This document shows positions 29,403 through 63,817 of a stretch of DNA of 64,000 bases, piece after piece. The translations under genes and the position numbers were made by a program. The stretch is from assembly GCA_964479445.1 (NCBI GenBank), contig CAYZMH010000003.1, positions 49,858-113,857 of the forward strand, given 5' to 3'. How positions within the stretch are numbered: the stretch's first letter is position 1; each line of letters opens with the position of its first letter. The stretch is from an uncultured Bacteroidaceae bacterium (GTDB lineage Bacteria; Bacteroidota; Bacteroidia; Bacteroidales; GCA-2748055). A model generated the notes under the pieces. That model was not told the origin of the DNA and searched no databases. It saw only the letters and a program-made list of their open reading frames with translations.

Positions 29403-29421
29403 AGTCTGTATGATTTTGATG

Positions 29422-29429: not shown

Positions 29430-29461
29430 ATAAAGTAGCCTGTCACGTAGCAGGCAGCAAC

Positions 29462-29494: not shown

Positions 29495-29561
29495 TGAAAC
29501 TCACAATCTGACTGTAACGGATCTATCTATTAACTTTAACCGCGAAATTAGGTTTTACATG

Positions 29562-41087: not shown

Positions 41088-41187
41088 CAATGAATGAACA
41101 ACTATACTCCGCAAGAGTTCTATAGGGTAGGTATAAGCTTACCGGGACACAGGCAGGTTAAATGATTGTTCACGAAAACCATTGACC

Positions 41188-44814: not shown

Positions 44815-44928
44815 ACATCATCTCCTTTCGCTGCAGACAATTTGGCAGTCTGCTCATATTACTTAGGTAGTCTTGTGGATTTGTCAATAAGTGTGCCAAA
44901 AGTTAATACGAATGAACTGAAATTTTGT

Positions 44929-46113
44929 TTATATGTAGCGAATCGATATCTCTTTTAGAAATTTCTCTTCCAACAGGCGGGCCATTCTCTTTACAACGGT
45001 CCGTCGTATTTCCAGTTCAACGGGAAGATTGGGGTCCTGGTGGGCTACATTAATACGTGTCCCTATTATAAACTCAATCTCATCGCTCTCTTTCATGAGT
45101 TTAACAATCCTGTCTGCAGGACCGTTACTCAGCGATGTGGCAGGACTGAATTCTTTCAGCAGGCGGGTTACTTTAGTAATGGTCAGGATTCCTTCGGTTA
45201 CAAGGTCAATTCCTTCCATAAATGACATGGGTGGCAGTTCCGGGTCTTCAAATTCCAGGCTATCCTCTATGGAGAGGTCCAGTTCCCTTGCCACAATATC
45301 AGCAGTTGTAGCCCCGCATACGATCTTTTTACCGGGAAACTCCCTGACGGCCCTGGCAAATTTCTCATCATTTTTCTTTTCATAGGGTGGTCCGGTTACC
45401 AACAAGAGCTTCCTGGGTTCGCGCAAATAGATACTGGCACAACTTGTATCATCTTTTGACTGGTAGGAGTCATTCCTGTAGGCTACATTTACCAGCTTGG
45501 CAGCCAGTTTAGAGGCAGAGATATCCTGGTTATTTTTCAGGTACCGTGCACAGTAATCCAACAGGTTATCCCTGCCCCAGCCAAGGGGGTATTTTTCGCT
45601 TCCAAGGCCCGACTGTGTAATACCATCGGAGCAGAAAAGGATGCGGTCTTCTTTCCGGGCTTTAAACTGACATGTTCGGATCTCCTTTCCCGCATTTCGT
45701 TCACTTTTAAGGATAATGCACTGCCATCCGGGTAAAAATGGCTGGTTATTTCTGAGAATTATGGTCTGCGGGTTGTCGTACTCCAGGATGGTGGTGGTTC
45801 CATCTGCTTCAATTTCCACGATAGTAAAGGTGGCATAGTTCATATGTCGCTCACTGCAGACTGGCAGGGTGTTCATAATTATTTCAGCGATCGTTTCGGG
45901 ATTTTTATGTTCGATCGTGAAATTCAATGCCATGGTTGAGGTAAGGGTAGCCAGGACGTTTGCTTTCACTCCATGGCCCATACCATCAGAGAGTACAGCA
46001 ATGGTACGGTTCTCTTCCCTGATCTTGCGACTAAGGAATACATCACCGCAAATTCTCTCATTCCCGTAGTTTCGTTGTTCGCTGGCAACTTCTATGTAGA
46101 AGGGTATATCCAT
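44929..46113 (-). CDS. PP2C/SpoIIE-family serine phosphatase with an extra C-terminal domain (hfsC-like, hydrogenase-sensor-linked)
   Basis: 394 aa. The motif is CGDVF...AVLSDGMGHGVKA. It starts 8 nt after the upstream PAS/H-domain gene. Confidence 0.8.
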   Translation of the reverse strand: MDIPFYIEVASEQRNYGNERICGDVFLSRKIREENRTIAVLSDGMGHGVKANVLATLTSTMALNFTIEHKNPETIAEIIMNTLPVCSERHMNYATFTIVEIEADGTTTILEYDNPQTIILRNNQPFLPGWQCIILKSERNAGKEIRTCQFKARKEDRILFCSDGITQSGLGSEKYPLGWGRDNLLDYCARYLKNNQDISASKLAAKLVNVAYRNDSYQSKDDTSCASIYLREPRKLLLVTGPPYEKKNDEKFARAVREFPGKKIVCGATTADIVARELDLSIEDSLEFEDPELPPMSFMEGIDLVTEGILTITKVTRLLKEFSPATSLSNGPADRIVKLMKESDEIEFIIGTRINVAHQDPNLPVELEIRRTVVKRMARLLEEKFLKEISIRYI

Positions 46114-46121
46114 CGATCCTG

Positions 46122-47972
46122 CTATTTCCCTTTTCGTGTCTGGTAGGATTCAATAATGGAGTTCAGCATTCGTTCGGTTTCTGCAGCTCCTTCGCCCAGG
46201 ATAAACCCTATTTGCTGGACCAAATTAAGATTCTTATCCACCACTTCGCCCAATCGCTTCACGATCTCTTCCTTCTGCACTTCAGGGTCAGAAAGGTCCC
46301 GGATAATCGCTCCGACTATCTTGTTCTTGCGAATTACAAATACCGAGACACTGAGAAGGCGCTCGGCATAGTTGATGTCACGGTTCGTGATGTTTTCATT
46401 ATTGGCAAGCACATAGGTAAAGAGGTTGTAGAAATTGTAGGGTAGCAGGGTTTTCATATCTGCACCCTTAAGTCCGGGCACCACCTCATTTATTTCTTTG
46501 GCATCGGTTCCCAGCAGGTCAATGAAGGTTTGGTTTGCCTGAATGATCTTGAGCTTTTCATCCAGGATCACCAGTCCGGAAGGCAACTTCTGCAGCATGG
46601 CTCTCATAATTTCCGAGGCTTCACTGGCACTCTCCTTCTCTTTCTTCGCTTTCTTTTCCGATTCCTTCAGGGCAGCCTGTGCCTGTGCCAGCTTCTCATT
46701 GGTGATTTTCATGGACTTTATGTGATCCATGCGATTGCGTGTGGCATAGGTGTTGCACATTTCGGGGATTGCGAGTCCCTGGGCAATGGCTATGGCAAAA
46801 TCCTTGCACGAGCTATAGCCACAGGCTCCGCATCCTTTATCATTACTTCCTGATTGGTCGAGCTCATCGAGAATGGTATCCACTTTCTTTTCTGAGGGGA
46901 TCTCAAGTCGCTGGTTATCATTCATGAACGTTCTTTCCAGGGAAAGGTCGGAGAGCTCTTCCAGGCTTTTCACCCACTGTTTGATGTTCAGGCTTTTTGT
47001 GCGCTTTGATACATATTTGATGAGCTGGCTTCTTCGCAGGTATTTTTTACCGCCCGGAGAAGTTCCGCGACCCATGATAAACTCCTTGAAGAACAGATTG
47101 AAATGGGATTTAATCCGGGTAATATTCTCTTCGAATTCATCGATTGCCCGGAGTATTTGTTCACCCTCTGAGGTTACAACCCTGGAGCTCATAATTTTCT
47201 CGTCCAGATCAGCAGCTTCCATGATTCCGCTGGAGAGGGGAAATAATGATCCTTTGTAACCCATCGGGTCATCAAAATCGCTGTATTCAAGTTTTTTCTC
47301 ATCCAGTTTTTTCTCATCAAAAAGATCTCTTAACTCCCTGAAGGTGATAACTTCATCAATTATCTTTTCCCCCGGCAGTCTCCGGATCTCCTCTTTTGAG
47401 GAAATGAGGGGACTTATATAAACCAGCTGGGTGTTTTCCCCGTGAAGAGCACGAACAATTTTCCCGGTGGTCAGTCCCGGAGCAAGAACCGGAGCAAGGT
47501 TCGGGATCAATTCAGGTTTGTACTTTTCGATATACATTACAGTGACCGGACAGTTGGAAAAGAGGTAATACTTACCGCGGGCAGATTGAACCAATTCCTT
47601 GTATTTTCTGGCTACCAGGTCAGCTCCGAAAGAGACCTCCTGGACAATATGAAATCCCAGTTCGCGTACCATGCTGACAAATTTCCGGTAATCGGTAATA
47701 TCCGGAAATTCCCCGGCTATGGAAGGATCCACGAGGGCGGCTACCCTGTTACTTTCCTTAAGGATCGTTTTTACCCTCTCTTTGGAGTCGCGCATTTCAA
47801 TGGCATCCGGACTACAGGCTGCAAGGCAGTTTCCACATCCTATGCACCGGCCCGGAAGTATTTCCGGTTTGGCATACTCAGAACGAACCCGGATGGCTTT
47901 TACCGGACATGCCCTCACACAGGCATAACATACTATGCATTTATCATCGTTTATTTTCAGCAATGGTTCCAT
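46122..47972 (-). CDS. [FeFe]-hydrogenase-like sensory protein: 2x[4Fe-4S] ferredoxin domain, degenerate H-domain, 4-Cys Fe-S domain, PAS domain
   Basis: 616 aa. It has CIVCYACVRACP and CIGCGNCLAACSP clusters. The H-domain fold is present (SFGADLVARKY...FSNCP...) but most H-cluster cysteines are lost. The CGACGYSSCKDFAIAIAQGLAIPEMC Fe-S domain and a C-terminal PAS domain follow. Confidence 0.8.
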   Translation of the reverse strand: MEPLLKINDDKCIVCYACVRACPVKAIRVRSEYAKPEILPGRCIGCGNCLAACSPDAIEMRDSKERVKTILKESNRVAALVDPSIAGEFPDITDYRKFVSMVRELGFHIVQEVSFGADLVARKYKELVQSARGKYYLFSNCPVTVMYIEKYKPELIPNLAPVLAPGLTTGKIVRALHGENTQLVYISPLISSKEEIRRLPGEKIIDEVITFRELRDLFDEKKLDEKKLEYSDFDDPMGYKGSLFPLSSGIMEAADLDEKIMSSRVVTSEGEQILRAIDEFEENITRIKSHFNLFFKEFIMGRGTSPGGKKYLRRSQLIKYVSKRTKSLNIKQWVKSLEELSDLSLERTFMNDNQRLEIPSEKKVDTILDELDQSGSNDKGCGACGYSSCKDFAIAIAQGLAIPEMCNTYATRNRMDHIKSMKITNEKLAQAQAALKESEKKAKKEKESASEASEIMRAMLQKLPSGLVILDEKLKIIQANQTFIDLLGTDAKEINEVVPGLKGADMKTLLPYNFYNLFTYVLANNENITNRDINYAERLLSVSVFVIRKNKIVGAIIRDLSDPEVQKEEIVKRLGEVVDKNLNLVQQIGFILGEGAAETERMLNSIIESYQTRKGK

Positions 47973-47984
47973 GGGTCACACAGC

Positions 47985-48230
47985 TTAGGCAAAGGTTTTT
48001 TCCAGGATATCAATAATATTTTGCGGGGTGACCTTCTCATGGATCTCTCCATTGATCTTCACAACGGGGCCCTTGCTGCAATCGCTGAAACAGTGATTGC
48101 CCTTCAGTACAATGTCCTGCTCCCGATCATGTTCCCTGAGATAGTTCTGAATGACCGGAAGTGTCTTCCGGTTGCCGCGGCTGAAGCAGGAACTTCCCAT
48201 GCATATCTCGATAACGATACGGTCTTTCAT
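47985..48230 (-). CDS. thioredoxin-like [2Fe-2S] ferredoxin (hfsA-like)
   Basis: The start was moved to MKDRIVIEICMGSSCFSRGN at 48230. Four Cys are present (CMGSSC...CFSDC). It lies 12 nt upstream of the PAS/H-domain gene. Confidence 0.75.
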   Translation of the reverse strand: MKDRIVIEICMGSSCFSRGNRKTLPVIQNYLREHDREQDIVLKGNHCFSDCSKGPVVKINGEIHEKVTPQNIIDILEKTFA

Positions 48231-48254
48231 CACAGATATGTTGAAATAACAAAG

Positions 48255-48262
48255 CAAAGTTA
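48255..48262 (-). promoter_or_regulatory. -7 promoter box TAACTTTG for the [2Fe-2S]/PAS-H-domain/PP2C operon
   Basis: The reverse complement of caaagtta is a perfect TAnnTTTG match, 25 nt upstream of the ATG at 48230. Confidence 0.4.
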
Positions 48263-48274
48263 ATAAATTCACAA
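48257..48274 (-). promoter_or_regulatory. candidate Rex operator (TTGTGAATTTATTAACTT on the minus strand)
   Basis: The left half TTGTGAA is a perfect match to the Rex consensus TTGTGAA-N4-TTCACAA. The right half matches 4/7. It overlaps the -7 box. Confidence 0.3.
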
Positions 48275-48418
48275 TAGAGGTCTCTTATCCTGATAAAACC
48301 GTTCCCGGCAGTAATTTAAATTGGGTAAAAATTACCCGCTCTGTCATTTTAAATCCCCGATTTGCAGGCATATACATAAAAGGAATATGAAAACCCGGGA
48401 TGTTGTTCGACACTTTAT

Positions 48419-48436
48419 TTGTTATTGTAATAACAT
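48419..48436 (+). promoter_or_regulatory. candidate Rex operator upstream of hydC (TTGTTATTGTAATAACAT)
   Basis: The inverted repeat TGTTAT-TGTA-ATAACA resembles the Rex box TTGT[TG]AA-N4-TT[AC]ACAA. It sits at the -33 region of the predicted hydCBA promoter, and a rex gene is in the same island. Confidence 0.4.
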
Positions 48437-48462
48437 TGTTTTTCAAATAACAGTCCTTTCTA

Positions 48463-48470
48463 TATATTTG
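48463..48470 (+). promoter_or_regulatory. -7 promoter box TATATTTG for hydCBA
   Basis: Perfect TAnnTTTG match 20 nt upstream of the ATG at 48491. Confidence 0.45.
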
Positions 48471-48490
48471 TTAGGGAGCAGGTGGGGTCA

Positions 48491-48973
48491 ATGGCTCATA
48501 ACAGGGTAATCATGAAGGATATAGAACATATTTTACAACGTTTCCCACAGGTAAATCGCGATGTGCTTATTCCTGTACTCCAGGCGGTTCAGGATGAGTA
48601 TGGATACCTGTCGGAGGATTCAGTAAGAATGATTGGGGAACACCTGGGACTCCCCACCAGTAAGATATATGGATTGGCAACCTTTTACAACCAGTTTACC
48701 TTTTCGGCCAGGGGTAAATTTCACATTCAGGTTTGCGATGGTAGTTCGTGTCATTTAGAAAAAAACGGGGATTTGCTCAAAGAGTTGTTCAAGCAGCTGG
48801 GTATTCGAAACGGGCAAACCACCCGGGACGGAATGTTCAGCCTGGAGGTTTTAGCGTGTATCGGTGCATGCGGTCAGGCGCCGGTGATGGTAGTAAATGG
48901 GGACTATTATCCCAGGGTCACTCCACCGGGGATGAGGGAAATCCTGGAAGATTATAAAAATAGAACAGGTTGA
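48491..48973 (+). CDS. hydC: NuoE-like [2Fe-2S] subunit of a trimeric [FeFe]-hydrogenase (HydC)
   Basis: The cluster motif is VCDGSSCHL...CIGACGQAPVMVVNG. The start is ambiguous (GTG 48482, ATG 48491 or ATG 48512). Confidence 0.85.
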   Translation: MAHNRVIMKDIEHILQRFPQVNRDVLIPVLQAVQDEYGYLSEDSVRMIGEHLGLPTSKIYGLATFYNQFTFSARGKFHIQVCDGSSCHLEKNGDLLKELFKQLGIRNGQTTRDGMFSLEVLACIGACGQAPVMVVNGDYYPRVTPPGMREILEDYKNRTG

Positions 48974-48974
48974 T

Positions 48975-50924
48975 ATGGTAACAACCGAGGTCAGTGAGGG
49001 TGTCGTCTCGTCGATCCTGGAGATGGTTCAGAGGGACCGTTCGGAGTATGATGCAAGGTTGCAGGCAGTCAGGGCCTACTATATGCGTGAATATGTAGAG
49101 TTACCATTGATCATGGTAAGCAACGATACCGGGGGCAGGGTTGCCGGGGGTGATGCGGTGATGGATGCAGTAAACCGGTATTTATCTGACCGGGGGATGG
49201 ATGGCGAGCTACGTGCGACAGGTTCATTGGGATTGCTTACGGTTGAGCCGGTTTTGAGCATACAATTGCCGGGAAGAACCCGGTTGATGTTCGGACCGGT
49301 GGAGGAGGAGGATGTGGCTTTTATTCTGGATGACGTTTTTCACAACTCCGTACCCGATGATAAGGTGATTTGCCAGCTCAGGAGTCCTAAACTGGATGCC
49401 TGGATTGACGTGCCCTTCATGGATGAGACACCCTTTTTTGCCAGTCAGAAAAGACTGCTTCTCAGGGACTGCGGAATTATAGATCCATTATCCGTTGAAG
49501 CATATATTGCCGGTGATGGTTACAAGGCTTTTTTGAAGACCATCAGGCACTACACGTTTGAAGAGATCTGTCTGCTTGTGGAAGAGAGTGGATTGCGCGG
49601 AAGATCAGGGAGCGGATTTAAGACCGGTACGAAATGGAAAGTTGCCTATCATACCCCGGCAGATCAGAAATACCTGGTATGCAATGCAGAGGAGAGTGAT
49701 CCGGGCGCTTTTATGGACCGGGCGCTCATGGAAGGAAACCCGCATCAGCTGATCGAGGGGATGGCTATAGCCTCCTATGCTATAGGGGCAACCAAGGCGA
49801 TCATTTATATTCGTTCGGAGTACCATGAATCCATCAAAAAGTTAGAGAGAGCTATCTCGGCTGCGCGGGATTACGGATTGCTCGGTGATAATATTTTCAA
49901 TAGCGGATTTAACCTGGACATCGCCATAAGAAAAGGTCCGGGTGCCTTTGTTTGCGGGGAAGAAACAGCACTGATTGCCAGTCTGGAAGGCAAACGGGGC
50001 ATGCCCCAGTCAAAACCGCCTTTCCCTGCAGTACGCGGTTTTCATGGGAAGCCCACTGTGATTAACAATGTTGAGACTCTTTCCAATGTTCCTCATATTA
50101 TCAGAAAAGGTCCTGCCTGGTACAGGGAAACCGGTACACCGGAGTCTCCGGGTACCAAAATATTCGCCCTTTCGGGTAAAGTCAGGAAGGCCGGACTTAT
50201 AGAAGTACCTATGGGGACTTCCCTCAATAGCCTGGTTCTGGATATTGCCGGTGGACCCCGGGAAGGGTCTGATTTGAAGGCAATTCATATCGGGGGGCCA
50301 TCCGGCTGCTTACTGCCCGGGGATCAACTGGATATTCCGATCAGTTTTGAATCCCTGAAAGAGGCTGGTGTGGTAATGGGTGCCGGAGGGATCCTGGTGC
50401 TGGATCAGTGGGTATGCCTGGTGGATCTTGTCAAGTATTTCATGGATTTCATGCAGCATCAAAGTTGCGGGAAATGCATTCCCTGCCGTGAGGGCACAAA
50501 GCGGATGTCTGAAATACTGGATGGCATCAGTAAAAAGCCCCAGGATGAGGAAGGTCATACAACCCTGGAGCGATTCAAAGGGGTTATGCAACTTGGTAGT
50601 CTGGCAGAGGTGATGAAGGACACCTCTTTATGCGGATTGGGACAATCGGCAGCGAATCCTGTTCTGACTGCCCTCAAACACTTCAGGAAAGAGTTCGAGG
50701 AGCATATTTTTGACAGGAATTGCCCGGCCAATGTATGCACGGAACTTCGAACCTATTACATTGATGTTGATTTGTGTACGGGTTGTTCCCTGTGCGCGAA
50801 AAAATGTCCTGAAGATGCAATAATAGGTACAGAAAGGCATCCCTATTTTATTGTATCGGAGAAGTGTACGGGTTGTGGGATCTGTCATGAGGTATGTAAA
50901 TTCAACGCTGTTTATTACAAGTAG
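48975..50924 (+). CDS. hydB: NuoF-like flavoprotein subunit of a trimeric [FeFe]-hydrogenase (HydB)
   Basis: 649 aa. It has an FMN/NADH-binding core (GRSGSGFKTGTKW, NAEESDPGAF), an N3-type cluster (SCGKCIPCREG, SLCGLGQS), and two C-terminal CxxCxxCxxxCP motifs. Confidence 0.88.
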   Translation: MVTTEVSEGVVSSILEMVQRDRSEYDARLQAVRAYYMREYVELPLIMVSNDTGGRVAGGDAVMDAVNRYLSDRGMDGELRATGSLGLLTVEPVLSIQLPGRTRLMFGPVEEEDVAFILDDVFHNSVPDDKVICQLRSPKLDAWIDVPFMDETPFFASQKRLLLRDCGIIDPLSVEAYIAGDGYKAFLKTIRHYTFEEICLLVEESGLRGRSGSGFKTGTKWKVAYHTPADQKYLVCNAEESDPGAFMDRALMEGNPHQLIEGMAIASYAIGATKAIIYIRSEYHESIKKLERAISAARDYGLLGDNIFNSGFNLDIAIRKGPGAFVCGEETALIASLEGKRGMPQSKPPFPAVRGFHGKPTVINNVETLSNVPHIIRKGPAWYRETGTPESPGTKIFALSGKVRKAGLIEVPMGTSLNSLVLDIAGGPREGSDLKAIHIGGPSGCLLPGDQLDIPISFESLKEAGVVMGAGGILVLDQWVCLVDLVKYFMDFMQHQSCGKCIPCREGTKRMSEILDGISKKPQDEEGHTTLERFKGVMQLGSLAEVMKDTSLCGLGQSAANPVLTALKHFRKEFEEHIFDRNCPANVCTELRTYYIDVDLCTGCSLCAKKCPEDAIIGTERHPYFIVSEKCTGCGICHEVCKFNAVYYK

Positions 50925-50939
50925 TTTAATTGAAGGGAA

Positions 50940-52664
50940 ATGGTCATACAGATTGAAGTAAATAACAAAACCATACAGGCTCAAAAAGGGGAGACAATCC
51001 TTTCTGCCCTGAGCCGCAATGGAATACAGGTTCCTACCATCTGCAGCATGAAAGAATTGACACCCAGCGGTGCTTGCCGTATGTGTGTAGTTGAGGTGGA
51101 GGGGAATGAGCACCTGGTACCGGCCTGTTCCTATCCGGTAGAAGAGTGGATGAAGATCAAAACCCATTCACCGAGGGTTCTCAGGGCGCGAAAGACAAAT
51201 GTCGAGCTATTGTTATCTGACCACCCTGATGACTGTCTTTATTGTGAACGGAACGGGAATTGCGAATTACAGAAGCTGGCCGAGGATCTGCATGTGCGGG
51301 AGAGGCGTATTCCTGGGAGGAAGAGCAGCTACAAGATCGATAAATCCAGTCCGGGAATCATCCGGGATCCTGCCAAATGTATACTATGCGGACGATGTGT
51401 GAGGATTTGCGAAGAGATTGTAGGTGTTGCCACCCTGGATTTTGTCAGGCGTGGCAGTGATTTGCAGATCGCTACTACCATGTCCAAGCCGTTAAATTTT
51501 TCCAATTGCATTCAATGCGGACAATGTGTTATCACCTGTCCTACAGGAGCACTTACCGAACATATGCAATTCCCGGAGCTGGAGGCATCCCTTCATCATC
51601 CCGAAAAAATTGTTGTCGCCCAGTATACGCCTGCTGTAGCAGCCTCACTTGCAGAGGAGTTTAATCTCAAAAAGGGTTTGGACGTGAAGGGGTTGATCAA
51701 TTCAGCCCTTCGAAAATCGGGATTTAATTATGTATTTGACGGATCATTCGGAGGTGAAGTCACCATTATGGAGCAGGCAGAGGCCTTTAAAGAACGGGTA
51801 AAGAAAGGAGGTCTTCTTCCCATGCTATCTTCTACCTGTCCGGGCTGGATCACCTATGTTGAGCAGTATCGTCCTGAATTGATCCCCCACCTGTCGGAGG
51901 TACGTTCTCCCCAGCAAATTATGGGAGGGCTTATCAAGACCTGGTTTGCCCGGCTGAACCACCTGGATCCCTCGCAGATCTTTTCGGTAGTGATCACCTC
52001 CTGCACAGCGGCAAAACAGGAGTCTCAGCGTGTCGAATTGTCGCGGAAAGGAGTCAATGATATTGATGCCGTACTAACCACTCGTGAACTGGCACGTCTG
52101 ATCCGACTTAACGGGATTGACATGGAACATCTTGATCCTGAGACTTCAGATGGACCCTTCCATGCACAAAGTTCTGCAGGTAAAATGTTTGCGGTTGCAG
52201 GAGGTGAGGCAGAGGTATTCGCAAGGACGGTATTTAAAAAATTCAACAGGAAGGAGATGCCGGTTTTACGTCTTAATAAATTCCGCGGCGCCAAAGATCT
52301 TAAAGAGACACAGATTCAGACATCCGGTGGTGATATTCACCTGGTGGCTGTAAACGGACTAAAGAATGCACTCAGGCTGCTGGACGAGGTAAAGGCCGGC
52401 AAAAAGCAGGTTGATTTTATAGAGGTAATGGCTTGTCCGGAAGGATGCATCAACGGAGGCGGACAACCTATCCCGGCAGGAGAAACAATTTTAAAAAACC
52501 GTATGCGCACTATATATGACATTGATAACAAAGAGACGATCAAAGTTGCTCACCGAAGTAGTGCCATTCAAAGACTTTATGAAGAGTATCTGACAGCGCC
52601 CCTGAGTAAGGAGAGTTGCAGGCTTTTGCATGCCCGGTATAGCGAAAAAGAGGCATTATTGTGA
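50940..52664 (+). CDS. hydA: [FeFe]-hydrogenase large subunit, M3 architecture (HydA/HndD-like), with non-canonical active-site environment
   Basis: 574 aa. It has an N-terminal [2Fe-2S] domain, a His-ligated cluster region, 2x[4Fe-4S], and an H-domain with L3 EVMACPEGCINGGGQP intact. L1 is SSTCPGW (canonical TSCCPxW) and L2 is TSCTAAKQE (canonical MPCxxKxxE). Confidence 0.85.
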   Translation: MVIQIEVNNKTIQAQKGETILSALSRNGIQVPTICSMKELTPSGACRMCVVEVEGNEHLVPACSYPVEEWMKIKTHSPRVLRARKTNVELLLSDHPDDCLYCERNGNCELQKLAEDLHVRERRIPGRKSSYKIDKSSPGIIRDPAKCILCGRCVRICEEIVGVATLDFVRRGSDLQIATTMSKPLNFSNCIQCGQCVITCPTGALTEHMQFPELEASLHHPEKIVVAQYTPAVAASLAEEFNLKKGLDVKGLINSALRKSGFNYVFDGSFGGEVTIMEQAEAFKERVKKGGLLPMLSSTCPGWITYVEQYRPELIPHLSEVRSPQQIMGGLIKTWFARLNHLDPSQIFSVVITSCTAAKQESQRVELSRKGVNDIDAVLTTRELARLIRLNGIDMEHLDPETSDGPFHAQSSAGKMFAVAGGEAEVFARTVFKKFNRKEMPVLRLNKFRGAKDLKETQIQTSGGDIHLVAVNGLKNALRLLDEVKAGKKQVDFIEVMACPEGCINGGGQPIPAGETILKNRMRTIYDIDNKETIKVAHRSSAIQRLYEEYLTAPLSKESCRLLHARYSEKEALL

Positions 52665-54658
52665 TGAAACAGGGAGAAGAACGGAAGCTGGTATATTCCA
52701 TAAAGGATCGCTGCAGGGTCTGTTATACCTGTGTCAGGGAATGCCCGGTAAAGGCAATCCAGATTAAAGATGGACAGGCTATTGTCATCCAGGAGCGGTG
52801 TATTGCCTGTGGAAATTGTACAAGGGTTTGTCGCCAGGGAGCCAAAGCTTATATGGAATCTGTCGATGAGGTCAATCTTTTACTGGAGTCTAATGCCCGG
52901 GTGATTGCCCTGGTAGCTCCCAGCTTCATCGCTGAATTCGAGGAGTTAACGGATCCACGGGTATTTGTGGGAATGGTAAGGGCCCTGGGATTTGATGAGG
53001 TATATGAAGTGGCATTTGGTGCGGACATGGTGGCCCGGGAATATGAAAAGCTCTATAAGGAGCGGCCAAAAAGGGGATATATCTCTTCTGATTGTCCTGC
53101 CATTGTATCCTATGTGGAAAAATACTACCCCAAGCTGATTGGTGATCTTTCACCCATTGTGTCACCTATGGTAGCTACCGCGCGTTTTCTGAGACACAGG
53201 TATGGCAATGAATTCAGGCTTGTTTTTATTGGTCCCTGCATTGCAAAAAAAGAGGAATCGAACGAGGTCGATGCGGTGATCACCTTTGCTGAATTAAGGA
53301 ACATGTTGCGGATACAACGTATTCGTCCGACCAATACCACCCAGGGGGAGTTCAATGCTCCCAGGGGGATGAAAGGAACAGCTTTCCCTATAAGCAGGGG
53401 CATGCTCCAAACCCTGAATATGGATGGTGATCAGCTGGAACGGGAGGTGATTGTGGCAGAGGGACGGATTAATTTCCAGGATGCAATCAAAGAGTACCGG
53501 AGTCATGATATTGAAAACATGCACCTGGAATTGCTCTGCTGTGAAGGCTGCACCATGGGACCGGGAACCACTCGTGACGGTAAAAAATTTGTTCGGAGGG
53601 CATCCGTTATCCGCTATCTGAATAATAAGTTGAACAGCGAAGACCATGAATTCTGGCAGGAATCAATGGATGAGGCCAAAGCGATTAATTTGCGGCAGTC
53701 ATTCAAGATGGATGACCAACGGAAGAAGGATCCTTCGAACAACGAGATTCGTAAAGTTCTTCAATCAATGGGGAAATATACGCCACAGGATCATCTTGAC
53801 TGCGGTGCCTGTGGATATGATACATGCCGCAATCACGCGATTGCCATCATCAAGGGATTGGCGGAGATAGAGATGTGTCTGCCTTACTCTATCGACAAAC
53901 TGCACAACACGGTCAATAAACTGGCTGTTTCCAACGATAAATTATTATCGGTTCAGCAGGCGTTGAAACAGACCGAGAAACTGGCTCACATGGGACAGCT
54001 TTCGGCCGGTATTGCACACGAGCTTAACAATCCGCTGGGAGTTGTGATTATGTATTCCAATATATTACTGGATGAGGTTGAGGGGGAATCACCCCTGAAA
54101 GAAGATTTGGATCTGATCGTAAAACAGGCCGAGCGATGTAAGAATATTGTGGGCGGATTGCTTAATTTTGCAAGGAAGAATCAGGTACGCCACCAGGAGA
54201 TTGATTTAAAAAAGATGCTGGAATTAAGTATCTCTTCGATCATCGTTCCCGGGGGGATCCACCTGGAGATAGATGATCGGCTCAACAATAGCTGGGCAGA
54301 ACTGGACCAGGAACAGATGATCCAGGTGATATCCAACCTGGTTAAGAATGCTGTTGAGGCGATGGAACAGGGAGACATCCGGGTAATTGCCGAGGATACC
54401 GATGACCAGGTTACCATTACGGTGAGTGATACCGGTAAAGGGATCAATGAGGAGGAGTTGGATAAGATATTTGAACCTTTTTATACCACCAAAGGCATTG
54501 GAATGGGGACAGGACTCGGACTGGCGACTGCTTACGGGATAGTGAAAATGCACAAGGGACAAATCGAAGTTCAGTCCAATGCCGATCCCCTGAAAGGCGA
54601 TACAGGAACTTCATTTATTATACAGGTGCCAAGGCACCCCAAAATATCTAATGTGTGA
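52664..54658 (+). CDS. [FeFe]-hydrogenase-like sensor fused to a histidine kinase (HydS-type H-domain, 4-Cys Fe-S domain, HisKA, HATPase_c)
   Basis: It has two N-terminal 4Fe-4S motifs. The H-domain carries SSDCP, GPCIAKKEE and ELLCCEGCTMGPG. The CGACGYDTCRNHAIAIIKGLAEIEMC domain follows, then the H-box IAHELNNPLG and N/G boxes (NLVKNAVEAM, DTGKGI, GTGLGLA). The ATG at 52664 overlaps the hydA stop. Confidence 0.85.
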   Translation: MKQGEERKLVYSIKDRCRVCYTCVRECPVKAIQIKDGQAIVIQERCIACGNCTRVCRQGAKAYMESVDEVNLLLESNARVIALVAPSFIAEFEELTDPRVFVGMVRALGFDEVYEVAFGADMVAREYEKLYKERPKRGYISSDCPAIVSYVEKYYPKLIGDLSPIVSPMVATARFLRHRYGNEFRLVFIGPCIAKKEESNEVDAVITFAELRNMLRIQRIRPTNTTQGEFNAPRGMKGTAFPISRGMLQTLNMDGDQLEREVIVAEGRINFQDAIKEYRSHDIENMHLELLCCEGCTMGPGTTRDGKKFVRRASVIRYLNNKLNSEDHEFWQESMDEAKAINLRQSFKMDDQRKKDPSNNEIRKVLQSMGKYTPQDHLDCGACGYDTCRNHAIAIIKGLAEIEMCLPYSIDKLHNTVNKLAVSNDKLLSVQQALKQTEKLAHMGQLSAGIAHELNNPLGVVIMYSNILLDEVEGESPLKEDLDLIVKQAERCKNIVGGLLNFARKNQVRHQEIDLKKMLELSISSIIVPGGIHLEIDDRLNNSWAELDQEQMIQVISNLVKNAVEAMEQGDIRVIAEDTDDQVTITVSDTGKGINEEELDKIFEPFYTTKGIGMGTGLGLATAYGIVKMHKGQIEVQSNADPLKGDTGTSFIIQVPRHPKISNV

Positions 54659-54663
54659 GCCCT

Positions 54664-55056
54664 ATGGTACAACAAAAAAAGCGAATTCTCCTCGCAGATG
54701 ATGATGTTGATTACCTGTTTCAATTGAAATTGCACCTGGAGGGGTGGGGATATGATGTGATCTCTGCAGAGAGTCAGCAAGAAGCGGAGCAAATTCTGGA
54801 ATCCCTCAAACCCGATCTGGCCATTTTCGATCTGATGATGGAGAACGAGGATAGCGGGTTTATTTTAGCGCACAGGCTTAAAACAAAGTATCCCGACACC
54901 CCGCTTGTTATCTCCACGGCAGTTACTGCGGAAACAGGTTTGAATTTCGGCATCAACAGCGAAGAGGATCGCAGCTGGATCAAAGCAGATCTTTACCTGG
55001 AAAAGGGAGTTCGACCCGAGCAACTGAAGTTGGAAATTGAAAAGCTGATCGATTAG
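54664..55056 (+). CDS. single-domain response regulator (REC only)
   Basis: It has ILLADDD...LAIFDLMMEN and no output domain. The ATG at 54664 is preferred over the GTG at 54655. Confidence 0.8.
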   Translation: MVQQKKRILLADDDVDYLFQLKLHLEGWGYDVISAESQQEAEQILESLKPDLAIFDLMMENEDSGFILAHRLKTKYPDTPLVISTAVTAETGLNFGINSEEDRSWIKADLYLEKGVRPEQLKLEIEKLID

Positions 55057-55058
55057 CT

Positions 55059-56186
55059 ATGGAGACATTGAAGCTCATGGTGGTGGATGATGAACCGGGT
55101 ATTCGTTCGGGTGTAATACGAATCCTGCGGAATCACCGGGTAAGTTATCCCTTTATGGATGAAGATTTCAACTTCGATTGCAGCGAGGCTTCTACCGGGG
55201 AAGAGGCCCTGGAGATGGTCAACAGGGATACACCGGATATTGTGCTGCTCGATAACAAGTTGCCCGGCATAAAGGGAATGGAGGTTCTGGAGATCATCCG
55301 GCAGAAGAAGCTTGATACCGTTGTTGCCATGATCACCTCCTATGCCTCCCTGGAGATCGCAGTGAAGGCAACCAATGACGGAGCGTATGATTTTATCCCG
55401 AAGCCTTTTACTCCCCAGGAGTTAAAGTCGTCCATGGACAACATTGTAAAGCAACTCTACCTCAAACGGATCACCCGGGAAATGAACAAGGAGGGCAAGC
55501 GGATCCGGTACCAGTTTCTTTCGGTGCTCAGCCATGAGCTGAAAGCGCCATTAAATGCCGTGGAGGGGTACCTGCAGGTTATGCAGGAACGGAAGATGGG
55601 GGAGGAACTCACTTCGTATGACCAGGTGATTGATCGCTGCCTTCAGAGAATTGGAGGGATGCGGGGATTGATCATGGACCTGCTGGATTTCACTAAAATC
55701 AGGTTGGAGAAAAAGGATGAAAAAGTGGAGCGTGTGGAGCTCAATGAGCGCATCAGTATGGCGATCTCAACGGTCAACCCCATGGCCATACAACGCAATA
55801 TATCCTTTGAAGTGGAAGCCCCGGTCCCGGTCATAGTGGAGGCAGATCCTTCAGATATTGATATTATCCTGAATAATTTGATATCCAATGCAGTAAAATA
55901 CAATACGGAGGGTGGAAAGGTAACGATCCGCCTGGAGCAGCAGGATAGCGTGGCAAAAATAGTGATCATGGATACAGGAATTGGAATGAATCCGGAAGAG
56001 GTATCCCAACTGTTCAAGGAGTTTGTCAGGATAAAAAACGTCAAGACCAAAGACATCACAGGTTCCGGGTTGGGACTTGCCATTGTCCGTAAACTGATCG
56101 AGCTTTACAAGGGACACATTGACGTGGAGAGTCTACCCGACAGGGGTAGTACGTTCACAGTGACCCTTCCCCTGGGTTACCTTTAG
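55059..56186 (+). CDS. hybrid REC-histidine kinase (N-terminal receiver, HisKA, HATPase_c)
   Basis: 375 aa. It has MVVDDEPGIRSG...IVLLDNKLPG, the H-box LSHELKAPLNAV, and DTGIGM...GSGLGLAIV. Confidence 0.85.
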   Translation: METLKLMVVDDEPGIRSGVIRILRNHRVSYPFMDEDFNFDCSEASTGEEALEMVNRDTPDIVLLDNKLPGIKGMEVLEIIRQKKLDTVVAMITSYASLEIAVKATNDGAYDFIPKPFTPQELKSSMDNIVKQLYLKRITREMNKEGKRIRYQFLSVLSHELKAPLNAVEGYLQVMQERKMGEELTSYDQVIDRCLQRIGGMRGLIMDLLDFTKIRLEKKDEKVERVELNERISMAISTVNPMAIQRNISFEVEAPVPVIVEADPSDIDIILNNLISNAVKYNTEGGKVTIRLEQQDSVAKIVIMDTGIGMNPEEVSQLFKEFVRIKNVKTKDITGSGLGLAIVRKLIELYKGHIDVESLPDRGSTFTVTLPLGYL

Positions 56187-56309
56187 GGAGATATCCACAG
56201 TGTACGGTTCCGGCTACAGCCGAACCGGGTATGGTACAGCTTGTTGGTTGGCGTGTTGAGGGGAGCATTGAACGAAAAATTTTGTTTTTTTCTCGTGATA
56301 TGAATAATA

Positions 56310-56327
56310 TTGTTTGTTAAATAACAA
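56310..56327 (+). promoter_or_regulatory. candidate Rex autoregulatory operator (TTGTTTGTTAAATAACAA)
   Basis: The half-sites TTGTTTG / ATAACAA resemble the hydC-upstream site. The core is the perfect palindrome TTTGTTA-AA-TAACAAA, ~45 nt upstream of rex. Confidence 0.35.
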
Positions 56328-56370
56328 AGATGTGAAGGGGAGAATTTGTACTATTGTCTCGTGAAAATGA

Positions 56371-57024
56371 ATGTTAAAAATGAAACTACCTGAACGAACG
56401 GTGGAGCGCCTGAGTGCTTACAGGCGCACGTTGCTGAATTGTTTATCCAACGGAAAGACTCATATCTATTCCCATGAACTTGCCCAGTTGCATCATAACA
56501 CGGCGGTGCAGGTGCGAAGGGACATTATGTTTATCGGGTATAGCAGTATGCAGCGAAAGGGGTATGATGTGCGTGAACTCATTGATGTAATTGGAGGCAT
56601 TCTTGATTCGGAGGAGGTTCTGAATGTGGCGGTAGTGGGTATAGGTAACCTGGGTCGTGCCATTACGGCATACTTTATGGGTAAGCGTTCGAAGCTTAAT
56701 ATTACCGCTGCATTTGATGTGGATCCAAATAAGATAGACCGGGTTGTTGCCGGGGTGAAGTGTTATTCGGTCAATCGCTTAAAAGAGATCATCCGGGAGA
56801 AAAATATTTCCATTGCTATAGTAACGGTCCCGTCGGATCAGGCGCATGTGGTTGCAGAGGAGCTGGTGGTTGCAGGTATACGGGGTATACTTAATTTCAC
56901 GACCATACCGTTGAATGTATCGCCGGATGTATACCTGGATGAGTATGATATGATAACCTCCCTGGAGAAGGTCGCTTATTTTGTCAAGAAACAGGAGGAT
57001 CAGCCTGTACAGCAAAATTCCTGA
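56371..57024 (+). CDS. rex: redox-sensing transcriptional repressor Rex
   Basis: 217 aa. It has an N-terminal wHTH (ERLSAYRRTL) and a Rossmann NADH site VAVVGIGNLGRAI. Confidence 0.88.
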   Translation: MLKMKLPERTVERLSAYRRTLLNCLSNGKTHIYSHELAQLHHNTAVQVRRDIMFIGYSSMQRKGYDVRELIDVIGGILDSEEVLNVAVVGIGNLGRAITAYFMGKRSKLNITAAFDVDPNKIDRVVAGVKCYSVNRLKEIIREKNISIAIVTVPSDQAHVVAEELVVAGIRGILNFTTIPLNVSPDVYLDEYDMITSLEKVAYFVKKQEDQPVQQNS

Positions 57025-57030
57025 TTTCCC

Positions 57031-57972
57031 ATGAAAACTCATTATTCCATGGATGACCTGGGGAAGATTATCAATCCAGTGGTCACAACCGGAACGTTTG
57101 ACGGGGTGCATGCAGGACATCATGTGATTATCAACCGCTTGATCCAGAGGGCTCGTGAAATTAGAGGAGAGTCGGTTCTGATCACCTTTCATCCGCATCC
57201 GCGCAGGGTTCTTTATCCGGAAGCCCAGGGTAAAAACCTGTTGTTGATCAATTCCCAGGAAGAGAAAAAGGAGTTGCTTTCAAAAACGGGGCTGGACCAT
57301 CTGATCATCCTGGAATTTACGCGTGATTTTTCTGCCACCTCGTGCTCCGAATTTGTGGAACAATACCTGGTGGGACGCTTGCATTCGAAAATCATTGTGG
57401 TTGGTTTTAACCACTATTTTGGAAAGAATAAACGGGGTGATTTTGAATACCTTTACCGTCTCCAGGAGAAGTACTCATTCAGGGTGGAGGAGATTCCGCA
57501 TCATGATATTCAAAATGAAACAGTCAGTTCCACCAAGATCCGCAGTGCGCTGACGGAGGGAAACATCCAGCGCGCCAATGCATATCTGGAGCATCATTAC
57601 AGGATCATTGCCGTTTTGTTTGCTAATGATGACGATCATGATCAGACAGGTAAAGAGGTGTATGATGTGAATATCAATGAGCGCATTAAGCTAATACCTG
57701 CAGATGGCATTTATGCAGTATCTGTTCATGTCCGTAATAAAATGCACAAAGCGCTCTTTCTTGTGGAGGACGGGGGTGTTGAAAACAATATGCTTGCTTC
57801 CACGCTAAAAATGAAGACAGTGCCTCTTGAACAGACAGGCGGGTTGGATCGGGTAAAGGGTACGATCTGTTTTCATAAAAGGATTGGCTCACCTGTCAGA
57901 TCACGAAATACAATCAGGGAGAGTAAGATACTGGAGACAGGTCTCCGTGATATTGAAGAGTTGATCTATTGA
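57031..57972 (+). CDS. ribF: bifunctional riboflavin kinase / FMN adenylyltransferase
   Basis: 313 aa. It has TTGTFDGVHAGHHVII and SSTKIR motifs. Confidence 0.85.
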   Translation: MKTHYSMDDLGKIINPVVTTGTFDGVHAGHHVIINRLIQRAREIRGESVLITFHPHPRRVLYPEAQGKNLLLINSQEEKKELLSKTGLDHLIILEFTRDFSATSCSEFVEQYLVGRLHSKIIVVGFNHYFGKNKRGDFEYLYRLQEKYSFRVEEIPHHDIQNETVSSTKIRSALTEGNIQRANAYLEHHYRIIAVLFANDDDHDQTGKEVYDVNINERIKLIPADGIYAVSVHVRNKMHKALFLVEDGGVENNMLASTLKMKTVPLEQTGGLDRVKGTICFHKRIGSPVRSRNTIRESKILETGLRDIEELIY

Positions 57973-58047
57973 ACCATGTGCATCCTGTTTTGTATCTTTC
58001 ACCTGTGAACTACTGTTTCAGGGCTAGGCTACTGATAACCACATATT

Positions 58048-58290
58048 ATGGAAAAACGCATCGGAGCTGCTATTGTTGTGATTGAAGACACAAGCCGCAT
58101 AGAACGACTTAACCAGATTGTAACCGAACATTCAGGCATGGTACTGGGAAGGCAGGGGATCCCCATGCGTGAACGCGGACTGAATATCATTTCACTGGTC
58201 GTGGAGGGATCCACGGATGAGATTGGTGCTCTTACAGGCAAGATCGGTCGTATACCGGGTATCCGGATTAAATCGGTGCTTGCCACATAA
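58048..58290 (+). CDS. TM1266-family small ACT-like protein (putative iron-only hydrogenase system regulator)
   Basis: 80 aa. The pattern RIGAAIVVIEDTSRIERLNQIVTEHSGMVLGRQGIP...NIISLVVEGSTDEIGALTGKIGRIPGI matches my recollection of the TM1266/TIGR03959 family. Confidence 0.6.
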   Translation: MEKRIGAAIVVIEDTSRIERLNQIVTEHSGMVLGRQGIPMRERGLNIISLVVEGSTDEIGALTGKIGRIPGIRIKSVLAT

Positions 58291-58577
58291 GAAATGTTAA
58301 AAAATCCCGTGGTTTTGTTAAAATTGGTATTTGATCCAACAAATCCGGCATTTAACGGTTATAACCATTGAAAAGTAATTGTTGGGGTGCAAGGCAGGCT
58401 GCGAATCTTTTTGAGGGTTTTAGGGAGTGTAGCAGTCTGCCTTATTTTATTTCAAGAATTATCTCACCACTTTACCAACGAAAAGGTCTCTGCAAATGAC
58501 CAATATCGTTCTCTTCTATTGATAATCAATTGATTCTTACACCTCTGTTACATCTTTTGGAAATTCCTGTCGGTTTA

Positions 58578-58640
58578 TTCCTCCTTCGCGTTCGCTTCGG
58601 CGGACGAGTTTCCTCCTTCGCATTTGCTTCGGCGGACGAG
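58578..58640 (+). repeat. tandem 31/32 bp direct repeat (2 copies), each able to form a UUCG-loop hairpin
   Basis: The copies are ttcctccttcgcgttcgcttcggcggacgag and tttcctccttcgcatttgcttcggcggacgag. They lie inside the 538 nt non-coding region upstream of the ADP-forming acetyl-CoA synthetase gene. Confidence 0.7.
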
Positions 58641-58828
58641 GAGGTTGGTTTAATTCCTCGGAGTTTTACTCCGAAAACAAGGGTCCAGGGTTCTTCCCTG
58701 AGGTTTAATACCATTTATTCAGAGAACCCGGTGGATGGCTGGTTGACTCTTTTATGTTCTAAGACACGCGTTGAAATTCCTGTGCTACGTTCGGCTTTTC
58801 TATCTTTAAGCTGCAAATTGAAAGCTTA

Positions 58829-60889: not shown

Positions 60890-60957
60890 CAGGTTTCAGT
60901 TGCCAGGTTCCCGGTGCCTTCTTCCAGACCGGAGTATTAACATGATAAGTCAAAATT

Positions 60958-62274: not shown

Positions 62275-62503
62275 GTATCTATTTATATCATTTATAAAAA
62301 GGGCAGAGAGGGATAAAATTTGGAATAGGGGTATGACTTTTTTTTTAACTAGCGGAGGAATGGTTAATTTTCCCTTTTATTCCCGGCAATGAAAATAGGC
62401 CTGTTATTTAACAGGTCTTGAACCTGTCGCTTATCATACATTGCGGTGAATAACGGATTTTTAGAAATCGTAATTTAGTACGTCAGATTTAATATCGAGA
62501 AAT

Positions 62504-62734: not shown

Positions 62735-62744
62735 GATATAATCC

Positions 62745-63815: not shown

Positions 63816-63817
63816 TT

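Follow-up and report, generated by a model that had tools for sequence, protein, structure and literature searches.

Why should one hydrogenase operon be bracketed by two further hydrogenase-like proteins, a protein phosphatase, a phosphorelay and the NADH sensor Rex? The question arises in a stretch of 64,000 nucleotides (the window, in whose numbering all coordinates are given) from an uncultured Bacteroidaceae bacterium (assembly GCA_964479445.1, contig CAYZMH010000003.1, positions 49,858-113,857), where an earlier note, made from the letters of the DNA, had described such an island around the [FeFe]-hydrogenase genes hydC, hydB and hydA. Our answer, held with moderate confidence, is that these genes serve Bacteroidales as a conserved and modular unit for the control of a HydABC-type (NADH- and ferredoxin-linked) [FeFe]-hydrogenase, working by the steps proposed further on. 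Its composition, the coupling of its genes, their conservation, the distribution of its operators and the state of its catalytic residues are established here.

All twelve genes named by the note lie where it had put them and encode the domains it had assigned, as judged from open reading frames (ORFs) and Pfam/NCBIfam searches (Table 1), and the divergent intergenic region claimed at 48231-48490 is present. Its leftward arm serves genes for a ferredoxin, a PAS-containing H-domain protein (the PAS protein) and a PP2C phosphatase; its rightward arm serves hydCBA and, behind it, the genes for an H-domain/histidine-kinase fusion (HHK), a stand-alone receiver (REC) and a REC-containing hybrid kinase (REC-HK). 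The hydA stop overlaps the HHK start (TGATG), the HHK and REC genes also overlap, and only 1-2 nt separate hydC from hydB and REC from REC-HK, so that hydCBA-HHK-REC-RECHK constitutes one tightly, translationally coupled unit. The operon layout put forward in the note is thus borne out down to its overlapping codons. A further unit, rex with a RibF-like and a TM1266-family gene, starts after a 185-nt gap behind REC-HK.

Homologues of HHK number more than 7600; when one genome per species was scanned, at least 574 genomes turned out to encode a relative. Synteny was assessed in the best 80 loci (identified below by L numbers), nearly all from metagenome-assembled genomes (MAGs) of uncultured Bacteroidales or Bacteroidota; denominators are the loci with enough flank to judge. 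HydA is encoded immediately 5' of HHK in 72 of 74 loci and HydC and HydB upstream in 67 of 68, while REC follows HHK in 70 of 71 and REC-HK in 69 of 71. Downstream, rex is present in 51 of 68 loci, the RibF-like gene in 48 of 66 and the TM1266 gene in 14 of 65; the divergent PAS protein (39/57) and PP2C (40/57) complete the picture. This arrangement is far beyond chance, and it is conserved in at least 80 species-level Bacteroidota genomes.

The island is therefore not the single, "unusually complete" assembly for which it had been taken: it belongs to a widespread modular Bacteroidales cluster of at least three architectural types. Type I clusters lack rex and the PP2C branch, have a small REC gene upstream and a canonical HydA, and carry hydG-hydF-hydE right after REC-HK (NCBIfam equivalogs at 513, 467 and 328 bits); in L024, for example, these three genes occupy 13601-17296 in the orientation of REC-HK, and they follow REC-HK also in L029, L039, L042, L044, L047, L050, L066, L069, L071 and L077. 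That relatives with a canonical HydA have hydGFE directly behind RECHK ties the kinase module to hydrogenase biology. Type II clusters combine rex and the RibF-like gene with the PP2C branch, and hydG often lies slightly farther downstream. The subclade to which the window belongs (L001, L004-L012) makes up Type III, which adds the TM1266 gene and then an amino-acid fermentation module and has no maturase nearby. Two loci with the typical Bacteroidales cluster, L022 (labelled as a Thiohalospira sp. MAG) and L076 (Syntrophothermus sp. MAG), are probably mis-binned contigs.

The kinds of component are already known: HydABC (group A3), HydS/Hfs (C3/M2f), kinase-linked C1 proteins and Rex regulons. 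A full-text literature search found no description of the Bacteroidales cluster, of a Cys-less HydS or of a HydA without Lys358, which agrees with the note's remark that it knew of no characterisation in Bacteroidota. As far as we could find, the following are undescribed: the Bacteroidales cluster, in which H-domain and kinase are fused in frame and coupled in translation to hydA; the way Rex operators accompany rex from locus to locus; a HydS-type protein maintained despite the loss of its H-cluster ligands; and a large HydA lineage without Lys358, Cys299 and Glu279.

Rex had been placed among the regulators of the island, and the operators uphold that placement, since those conserved upstream of hydC track the presence of rex. 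A search for TGTTA-N6-TAACA across the 64 kb, allowing at most one mismatch, returned three sites, all inside two promoter regions, those of hydC and rex. The hydC sites form a tandem, 17 bp apart, directly 5' of a -7 box, TATATTTG, and 39-71 nt ahead of the hydC ATG. Their motif, the palindrome TTGTTA-N6-TAACAA, equals the Rex consensus published for Thermoanaerobacterium, TTGTTANNNNNNTAACNN; in T. saccharolyticum, Rex sites are predicted upstream of hfsABCD and hydG (PMC5886521). Among relatives, a site lies within 200 bp upstream of hydC in 42 of the 47 loci that contain rex, usually as the 17-bp-spaced pair, versus none of the 14 long rex-less loci; with 5.6 sites per kb in front of hydC and 0.068 in the remaining sequence, the enrichment is 82-fold. 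A site likewise precedes rex in L005-L008, L010 and L012. The protein itself, above its family cutoff, has the winged-helix N-terminus and Rossmann NAD(H) domain of Rex. Repression of hydCBA-HHK-REC-RECHK by Rex and, in the window's subclade, autoregulation of rex are thus well supported by inference, 56311-56326 being the probable candidate for the autoregulatory site. The Rex regulons of Firmicutes and Thermotogae are alike in their operator half-sites (TTGTTA-N6-TAAC) and in having hydrogenase and hydG operons as typical targets; unlike them, the present cluster contains rex within the target itself, and operator presence follows rex from locus to locus. No description of Rex control of this kind in Bacteroidota was found in the literature search; the operators linked to rex would add that phylum to those in which Rex controls hydrogenases.

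Of the proteins in the island, only HHK looks fully equipped for H-cluster binding and reaction with H2; it is the credible H2 sensor. Its domains are, in order, 2x[4Fe-4S], the H-domain, a Cx2Cx4Cx16C cluster, a coiled coil, HisKA (with His453) and HATPase. Aligned with solved hydrogenases and 80 orthologues, it reads SSDCP at motif L1, GPCIAKKEE at L2 and CC-E-G-C at L3; SDCP is found in 81 of 81 HHK orthologues, and GPCxxKK (as GPCxAKKxE) and CxGC (as (C)C-E-G-C-x-M-G-P-G) are conserved. In the CpI numbering used here for H-domain ligands, C145, C193, C294 and C297 of HHK correspond to C300, C355, C499 and C503, and K196 to Lys358. The proton-relay position Cys299 is taken by Asp144, and this Asp is invariant across the orthologues. 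Mutations E279Q/A and C299A/S reduce CpI to less than 1% activity, while Asp at 299 is the only substitution that leaves CpI and HydA1 30-80% active (PMC6226526). Position 353 has Gly in place of Met, as in TmHydS, the L3 spacing is CxxC, and NCBIfam hydrogenase matches are sub-threshold.

A kinase-linked H-domain sensor with two REC proteins, as the note had proposed, is indeed present, HisKA and HATPase being in the same polypeptide as the H-domain. The proposed three-protein phosphorelay stands as far as its parts go (the kinase fusion, REC and REC-HK are there, the translated REC has its acidic pocket, phospho-Asp, Ser/Thr and Lys, and Asp59 of REC and Asp65 in the receiver of REC-HK are the candidate phosphoacceptors); as a relay it is incomplete, the island encoding no output domain. 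A REC-LytTR response regulator at 41182-41943 (+), 3 kb upstream of the island and beyond lon, is a candidate for the output.

Judged by its features, HHK resembles HydDB group C1: it shares the sensory-type H-domain with Gly353 and no Cys299, the C-terminal four-Cys cluster and the association with a histidine kinase, and the function of that group, too, is only postulated (PMC5037454, PMC6163223). HydDB terms group C1 "putative", with an "undetermined role", and H2-dependent signalling has never been demonstrated for any member (PMC5037454). HHK departs from the group in having the kinase fused in-chain, where the genomes of PMC8542988 and PMC6163223 have it as a separate neighbouring gene, and in its translational coupling to hydA, its invariant Asp299 and its CxxC at L3. 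The same sensor-kinase logic is known from the [NiFe] system HoxBC-HoxJ-HoxA of Cupriavidus/Ralstonia, in which a low-activity hydrogenase-like sensor and a histidine kinase control hydrogenase expression (PMC5707799); that system, however, has an unrelated metal site and unrelated protein families, splits sensor and kinase between two proteins, and acts through a known response regulator, HoxA.

The divergent branch has the hfsABC-like gene order that the note had recognised, [2Fe-2S] ferredoxin, PAS protein and PP2C. The PAS protein also has the domain order of M2f proteins, which consist of N-terminal 2x[4Fe-4S], H-domain, Cx2Cx4Cx16C and PAS, and whose genes, like those of M2e proteins, are often in operons with group A hydrogenases (PMC8163306). 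Its Fe_hyd_lg_C match is strong (E 4.8e-31) but covers only profile positions 2-211 of 245, and its alignment to T. kivui HydA1 and CpI runs to about residue 260 and stops before L3. Set against the typical family pattern, SSACP / GPCIAKKxE / ACxGGCxNGP, it reads FSN-CP at L1, SPLISSKEE at L2 (Cys355 to Leu, Lys358 to Ser) and FFKE-FIMGRG in the L3 region (Cys499 to Lys, Cys503 to Phe), only the C300 equivalent being left. With three of four ligands gone, it cannot be an H-cluster-based H2 sensor in this organism. The "two sensory H-domain paralogues" of the note are hence reduced to one with an intact site, HHK, and one with Leu, Lys and Phe in place of ligands.

The same losses are found in L001-L006, L009 and L012, several of which lack the remaining Cys as well (SNDP). 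The other 38 PAS orthologues keep C300, C355 and C503, position 499 being Cys (20), Asp (10) or Asn (8). Family-wide, a search of 1.84 billion representatives yielded about 140 full-length ones, among which only three lack these Cys: that of the window and two others, P0362 and P0371. The Cys-less members are 60-64% identical to each other in the H-domain, a value equal to that of the intact clade, and 72% identical in the FeS and PAS parts; all eight Cys of the N-terminal ferredoxin domains (2x[4Fe-4S]) and the Cx2Cx4Cx16C motif of the window protein are intact. Judged by these identities, the Cys-less H-domain fold is still under selection and shows no decay. The PAS protein is best read as a pseudo-hydrogenase scaffold that has kept conventional Fe-S clusters and a PAS domain; it is related to C3/M2f proteins by architecture but is not a hydrogenase. 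Its closest known counterparts, HydS and HfsABCD (C3, M2f; HydS of T. maritima and R. albus, hfs of T. saccharolyticum), share its gene order and domain order and likewise adjoin HydABC and Rex, with a Rex box predicted before hfsABCD (PMC5886521). They differ in that the window protein lacks Cys355, Cys499 and Cys503; even the "intact" Bacteroidales orthologues have Asn299, no Lys358 and Cys, Asp or Asn at 499; no gene for an HfsD-type kinase is present; and the PP2C carries an extra conserved domain.

In the PP2C protein, residues ~20-230 form the phosphatase domain; an AlphaFold 2 model of the protein (predicted local distance difference test score 78.5) matches SpoIIE, RsbU and RsbX structures in Foldseek (best E 3.5e-13), and conservation extends to DGMGHG, DG and DDT, the motifs that bind metal. 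Each of the top 120 homologues has a length of 394 aa, and they are 72-98% identical. Residues ~235-394 make up a second, alpha/beta domain with invariant GPP, GATTxD, LPPxSxM, TEGILT, GPAD and AHQDP, for which we obtained no Pfam match with the isolated domain and no significant match in the PDB with a profile of 12 sequences; the best of the latter, phosphoheptose isomerase, was dismissed as a relative at E 0.061. Foldseek with the full model matched the N-terminal PP2C domain only. SpoIIE/RsbU-type enzymes normally dephosphorylate STAS-domain partner-switching proteins, and the island contains no gene for a STAS-domain partner. In L041, L046, L055, L057, L070, L075 and L078, the PP2C branch is joined, upstream of the PP2C gene, by a further pair of genes, for a more distantly related HydA-like protein (38-42% identity) and a HydC-like one.

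The catalytic subunit itself departs from the note's picture of a plain hydrogenase. HydA (574 aa) aligns end to end with its best PDB matches, HydA1 of T. kivui (E 4e-146) and of A. woodii (E 1e-141), and without a gap to CpI over residues 201-426, so that the numbering coincides. Retained are C300, C355, C499, C503, M497, S319, R286, P324, Q325, K359, E361 and F417, with a canonical L3; changed are E279Q, E282A, C299T, M353T, P354S, K358A, V423E and M424A. The window accordingly reads SSTCP and TSCTAAKQE for the canonical TSCCP and MPCxxKxxE, and of the proton pathway C299-E279-S319-E282-R286 only S319 and R286 are kept: the group-A pathway and Lys358/Met353/Pro354 have been replaced, as in sensory-type enzymes. 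The score against the NCBIfam model for group A6 NADH-dependent hydrogenases, NF040763, is 673.2 bits, below the cutoff of 765.

These changes are a property of a lineage. The four H-cluster Cys are present in the window, in 75 of 75 syntenic orthologues and in 121 of 121 lineage members. Among the 75, the full canonical residue set is mostly confined to Type I clusters, and Glu279 and Cys299 vary widely in rex/PP2C-type clusters. The nearest HydA sequences form 120 clusters at 90% identity, about 95 of which have Q279, a residue other than Cys at 299, Ser/Thr353, Ser/Asn354, Ala358 and Glu423; position 299 is Ser in 70, Arg in 23 and Asp in 14. In the lineage, Lys359 is kept in 121/121, Met497 in 116/121 and Ser319 in 75 (Thr in 34), and among the syntenic proteins Pro324 is kept in 73/75 and Gln325 in 68/75. 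Sequencing errors or pseudogenes were rejected as the source of the oddities of HydA and the PAS protein: both reading frames are unbroken, and dozens of independent assemblies show these residues as well. By analogy with CpI mutagenesis, the HydABC of this lineage is probably a retuned hydrogenase, (much) slower or differently biased; Glu423 may, speculatively, offer an alternative proton route.

Similar changes have been described in the putatively sensory enzyme TamHydS of Thermoanaerobacter mathranii (group D, M2e), which has Ser/Thr353 and has lost the group-A proton pathway (PMC8163306), and for which an alternative, Glu-based proton path is proposed (PMC10407848). The likeness extends to the hydroxyl at 353, the missing Cys299 and pathway, and a gene that stands beside that of a trimeric group A hydrogenase; TamHydS differs in being a separate, monomeric M2e protein, whereas here the changes lie within HydA of HydABC itself and Lys358 is replaced too. 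With the electron-bifurcating or -confurcating HydABC complexes of group A3, known from T. maritima, T. kivui and A. woodii (PDB 7p5h, 8a6t, 7q4v), the present one shares the order hydC, hydB, hydA, the M3 domain set and the four Cys. It differs from them in E279Q, E282A, C299T, M353T, P354S, K358A and V423E, in its sub-cutoff A6 score, and in the N-terminal domain of HydB (170 aa), which has no Cys cluster and no Pfam match.

As the note had reported, the window contains no hydE, hydF or hydG (tblastn with Bacteroidales HydG, HydF and HydE, best E 0.13), nor did Pfam scans of its other large ORFs reveal radical-SAM maturases. None of hydG/F/E lies within 10 kb of the cluster in L001-L012; 32 other loci have hydG adjacent. 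The TM1266-like regulator, also correctly named in the note, is above the TIGR03959 cutoff, and its gene is retained in L001, L004-L008, L010 and L012. The HHK site, Cys503 of HydA and this retained gene argue that the H-cluster is made in the organism. The note's suggestion that ribF supplies FMN to HydB fared less well. The FAD-synthetase (FMN-adenylyltransferase) domain of the RibF-like protein is intact, its riboflavin-kinase domain has degenerated (the Flavokinase match, E 0.033, stays under the cutoff), every NCBIfam RibF equivalog score is below cutoff, and the PTAN motif is found in 0 of 49 cluster-linked orthologues. On these features the protein is classed as a specialised paralogue rather than the housekeeping RibF.

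Several points weigh against the control unit as we picture it. The three Rex-like sites of the window are not a significant number on their own, being reached in 13 of 100 shuffles, so that it is their placement and the comparison among loci that carry the case for Rex. Neither REC protein has a DNA-binding output domain, nor does any other protein of the island. With hydEFG not found in the window searched, H-cluster synthesis in this organism is unproven. Sensory enzymes of groups C and D also do without the group-A proton pathway and still show H2 turnover; the effect of the HydA substitutions may therefore go no further than a retuning of activity. Glu423, being invariant, could belong to an alternative proton route.

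How far, then, do other explanations account for the locus? Taken literally, the earlier model of a normal bifurcating HydABC, two true H2 sensors, Rex and a RibF feeding FMN to HydB is unlikely: although the domain architectures fit HydDB groups A3, C3 and C1, three or four ligand positions persist in the PAS protein of ~38 of 47 related loci, and HydA is fully canonical in rex-less relatives, the window's PAS protein lacks Cys355, Cys499 and Cys503, its HydA has E279Q, C299T and K358A, and its RibF-like protein has no credible kinase domain. The same losses might be carried further and taken as an exit from H2 metabolism, with HydA keeping just the [4Fe-4S] portion of its active site and no [2Fe] subcluster being made, HydCBA acting as an NADH:ferredoxin-type (Bfu-like) oxidoreductase and HHK and the PAS protein as Fe-S redox sensors. 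This would explain why HydA has shed Lys358, Met353, Pro354, Cys299 and Glu279 and falls under the NCBIfam hydrogenase cutoff, why the PAS protein has shed its H-cluster Cys, and why maturase genes are missing from the window and from within 10 kb in L001-L012 when 32 other loci keep hydG adjacent. We find it doubtful all the same, for the four Cys and Lys359 are universal in the HydA lineage and Met497 and Ser319 (or Thr) largely kept there, as are Pro324 and Gln325 in the syntenic orthologues; the bridging Cys503 is required only for the [2Fe] site; HHK in the same genomes has a complete H-cluster site including Lys358; the retained TM1266-family gene is a marker of the HydEFG system; and the new HydA residues are themselves conserved, which speaks for retuning rather than decay.

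It is very unlikely that HHK, far from being a sensor, docks on HydABC as another low-activity hydrogenase or as an electron-transfer partner, and that the kinase, REC and PP2C genes belong to an unrelated pathway which happens to share the operon. A MAG study did raise a metabolic role for C1 proteins, encoded with bifurcation subunits (PMC8542988), and Asp299 is compatible with turnover; against this, H-domain, HisKA and HATPase share one polypeptide in 81 of 81 orthologues, with the phospho-His motif intact, REC and REC-HK follow almost without exception, and sensors are usually built in just this way, with a cofactor domain fused directly to the kinase. There is also some small chance that a large Bacteroidales lineage has turned HydABC from a bulk H2 evolver into a slow, sensor-like H-cluster module, which with HHK would form a multi-subunit device, the PAS protein, once the H2 sensor, having become a cluster-less pseudo-hydrogenase. 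Devoid of the group-A proton pathway and of Lys358 but with the newly conserved Ser/Thr353-Ser354-Glu423 set, HydABC would be made stoichiometrically with HHK and perhaps be docked to it, and the device would integrate the status of NADH, ferredoxin and H2 and pass it on as phosphorylation.

For the control unit that we favour, the following course of events can be proposed. At low NADH/NAD+, Rex would repress hydCBA-HHK-REC-RECHK, as known Rex proteins would lead one to expect, and a build-up of NADH would free the tandem operators; through the third operator Rex would regulate its own unit, rex-ribF'-TM1266. HHK would provide an H2 or redox input, the redox state of its H-cluster and of the flanking Fe-S clusters altering autophosphorylation, and its phosphate would pass to the stand-alone REC and the REC-HK hybrid and on to an output regulator outside the island. 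The divergent operon would form an Hfs/HydS-type phosphatase branch, in which the PAS protein may serve as an Fe-S/PAS redox sensor or scaffold and, with the ferredoxin, signal redox state to the Ser/Thr phosphatase PP2C. Both branches would act on targets beyond the island. The hydrogenase so controlled, with its Q279, S/T299, S/T353, S354, A358 and E423, would, if CpI mutagenesis is a guide, be slow or differently biased.

Whether group C [FeFe]-hydrogenase-like proteins do sense H2, and by what route they signal, has been a question ever since their role as sensors was proposed, the evidence so far being spectroscopy on TmHydS and TamHydS and the genetics of hfs. With its H-domain fused to a histidine kinase and two receivers adjoining, HHK gives unusually direct experimental access through a simple readout: autophosphorylation and phosphotransfer can be compared in the presence and absence of H2. 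The cluster also holds two natural experiments: a PAS "hydrogenase" without H-cluster ligands yet under selection, that is, a pseudoenzyme, and a HydA lineage with many members that has exchanged the "strictly conserved" residues Lys358, Cys299 and Glu279 for a new set, itself conserved. The latter bears on how the scaffold tunes H-cluster reactivity, and surveys of MAGs that equate an A3 hydrogenase with an H2 producer (Bacteroidota; sediments, soils, guts) may overestimate H2-evolving capacity. Sensors beside HydABC would not surprise specialists; a PAS paralogue stripped of its ligand Cys and a whole HydA lineage without K358 would.

Table 1. Coordinates of the genes and regulatory features of the hydrogenase island (window numbering).
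Feature	Position	Strand	Evidence
SpoIIE/RsbU-type PP2C phosphatase with C-terminal alpha/beta domain	44929-46113	-	Pfam SpoIIE, E 7.8e-14
PAS-containing H-domain protein, 616 aa	46122-47972	-	2x Fer4, Fe_hyd_lg_C, FeS, PAS (Pfam)
Thioredoxin-like [2Fe-2S] ferredoxin (HfsA-like, like the C-terminal half of NuoE), 81 aa, ATG at 48230	47985-48230	-	2Fe-2S_thioredx, E 3.7e-12
Candidate Bacteroidetes-type -7 box TAACTTTG of the ferredoxin/PAS-H/PP2C operon	48255-48262	-	Read by eye
Tandem Rex-type operators TGTTATTGTAATAACA and TGTTTTTCAAATAACA	48420-48435, 48437-48452	+	Motif search
Bacteroidetes-type -7 box of hydC, TATATTTG	48463-48470	+	
hydC, NuoE-like [2Fe-2S] subunit; ORF from 48482, probable ATG 48491	48491-48973	+	2Fe-2S_thioredx, E 2.4e-48, full length
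hydB, NuoF-like FMN/NADH subunit with C-terminal 2x[4Fe-4S]	48975-50924	+	Complex1_51K, NADH_4Fe-4S, Fer4; NuoF family, E 3.5e-142
hydA, M3-type H-cluster subunit of HydABC-type complex	50940-52664	+	Fer2_4, NADH-G_4Fe-4S_3, Fer4
HHK, H-domain/histidine-kinase fusion, 665 aa, soluble	52661-54658	+	Fer4, Fe_hyd_lg_C, FeS, HisKA, HATPase
Stand-alone receiver (REC)	54655-55056	+	Pfam Response_reg, E 8.9e-14
REC-HisKA-HATPase hybrid kinase (REC-HK)	55059-56186	+	Pfam
Rex-type operator TGTTTGTTAAATAACA, 45 nt upstream of rex	56311-56326	+	Motif search
rex	56371-57024	+	Put_DNA-bind_N and CoA_binding (Pfam); NCBIfam Rex NF003995, 203 bits (cutoff 126)
RibF-like paralogue	57031-57972	+	FAD_syn domain
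TM1266-family, ACT-like "iron-only hydrogenase system regulator"	58048-58290	+	Pfam TM1266-like, E 1.6e-24; TIGR03959, 89.8 bits (cutoff 60.8)
Conserved structured non-coding element	58370-58452	+	blastn, alignment, RNAalifold

Some of these features call for comment. The 81-aa ferredoxin has NuoE-family matches in NCBIfam, and its translation shows the Cx4C...Cx3C motif. The box TAACTTTG in front of its gene fits the TAnnTTTG consensus and is a candidate only. A scan for sigma-70 promoters and terminators was set aside: its counts did not exceed those expected from shuffled DNA, and Bacteroidetes promoters are not in the model.

The non-coding element, about 80 nt directly 3' of the TM1266 gene, recurs in eight related loci, where blastn gives 83-88% identity, a degree of conservation well beyond that of the genes on either side. 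It is made up of an invariant 5' flank, GTAATTGTTGGGGTGC, a 12-bp stem (58391-58402 paired with 58432-58443) in which RNAalifold recognises three compensatory pairs, an invariant loop of ~29 nt and a U-tract; a search of 44000-60000 against Rfam gave no family at E<=0.1. The element probably includes the terminator of the rex-ribF-TM1266 unit and could combine it with a small RNA or a leader. An ORF that follows, 58530-58829 (99 aa), was rejected as a gene, showing no conservation by tblastn.

Downstream of the island, from 58829 to 64000 (+), runs the amino-acid fermentation module, which encodes VorB along with an aminotransferase and an acyl-CoA synthetase of the ADP-forming kind. L004-L007, L010 and L012 contain a match to the window's VorB, and short metagenome contigs with an identical VorB have a small ferredoxin just upstream and the other VOR subunits just downstream. 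Neighbours of this kind (2-oxoacid:ferredoxin oxidoreductase, acyl-CoA synthetase, aminotransferase) fit a role in the disposal of reductant from amino-acid fermentation. Two regions on the opposite strand, 477-10407 (-) and 28203-29504 (-), encode diphosphomevalonate decarboxylase and HMG-CoA reductase of the mevalonate pathway, an acyl-CoA dehydrogenase, subunits of a biotin-dependent acyl-CoA carboxylase, and a flavodiiron-type protein (metallo-beta-lactamase plus flavodoxin).

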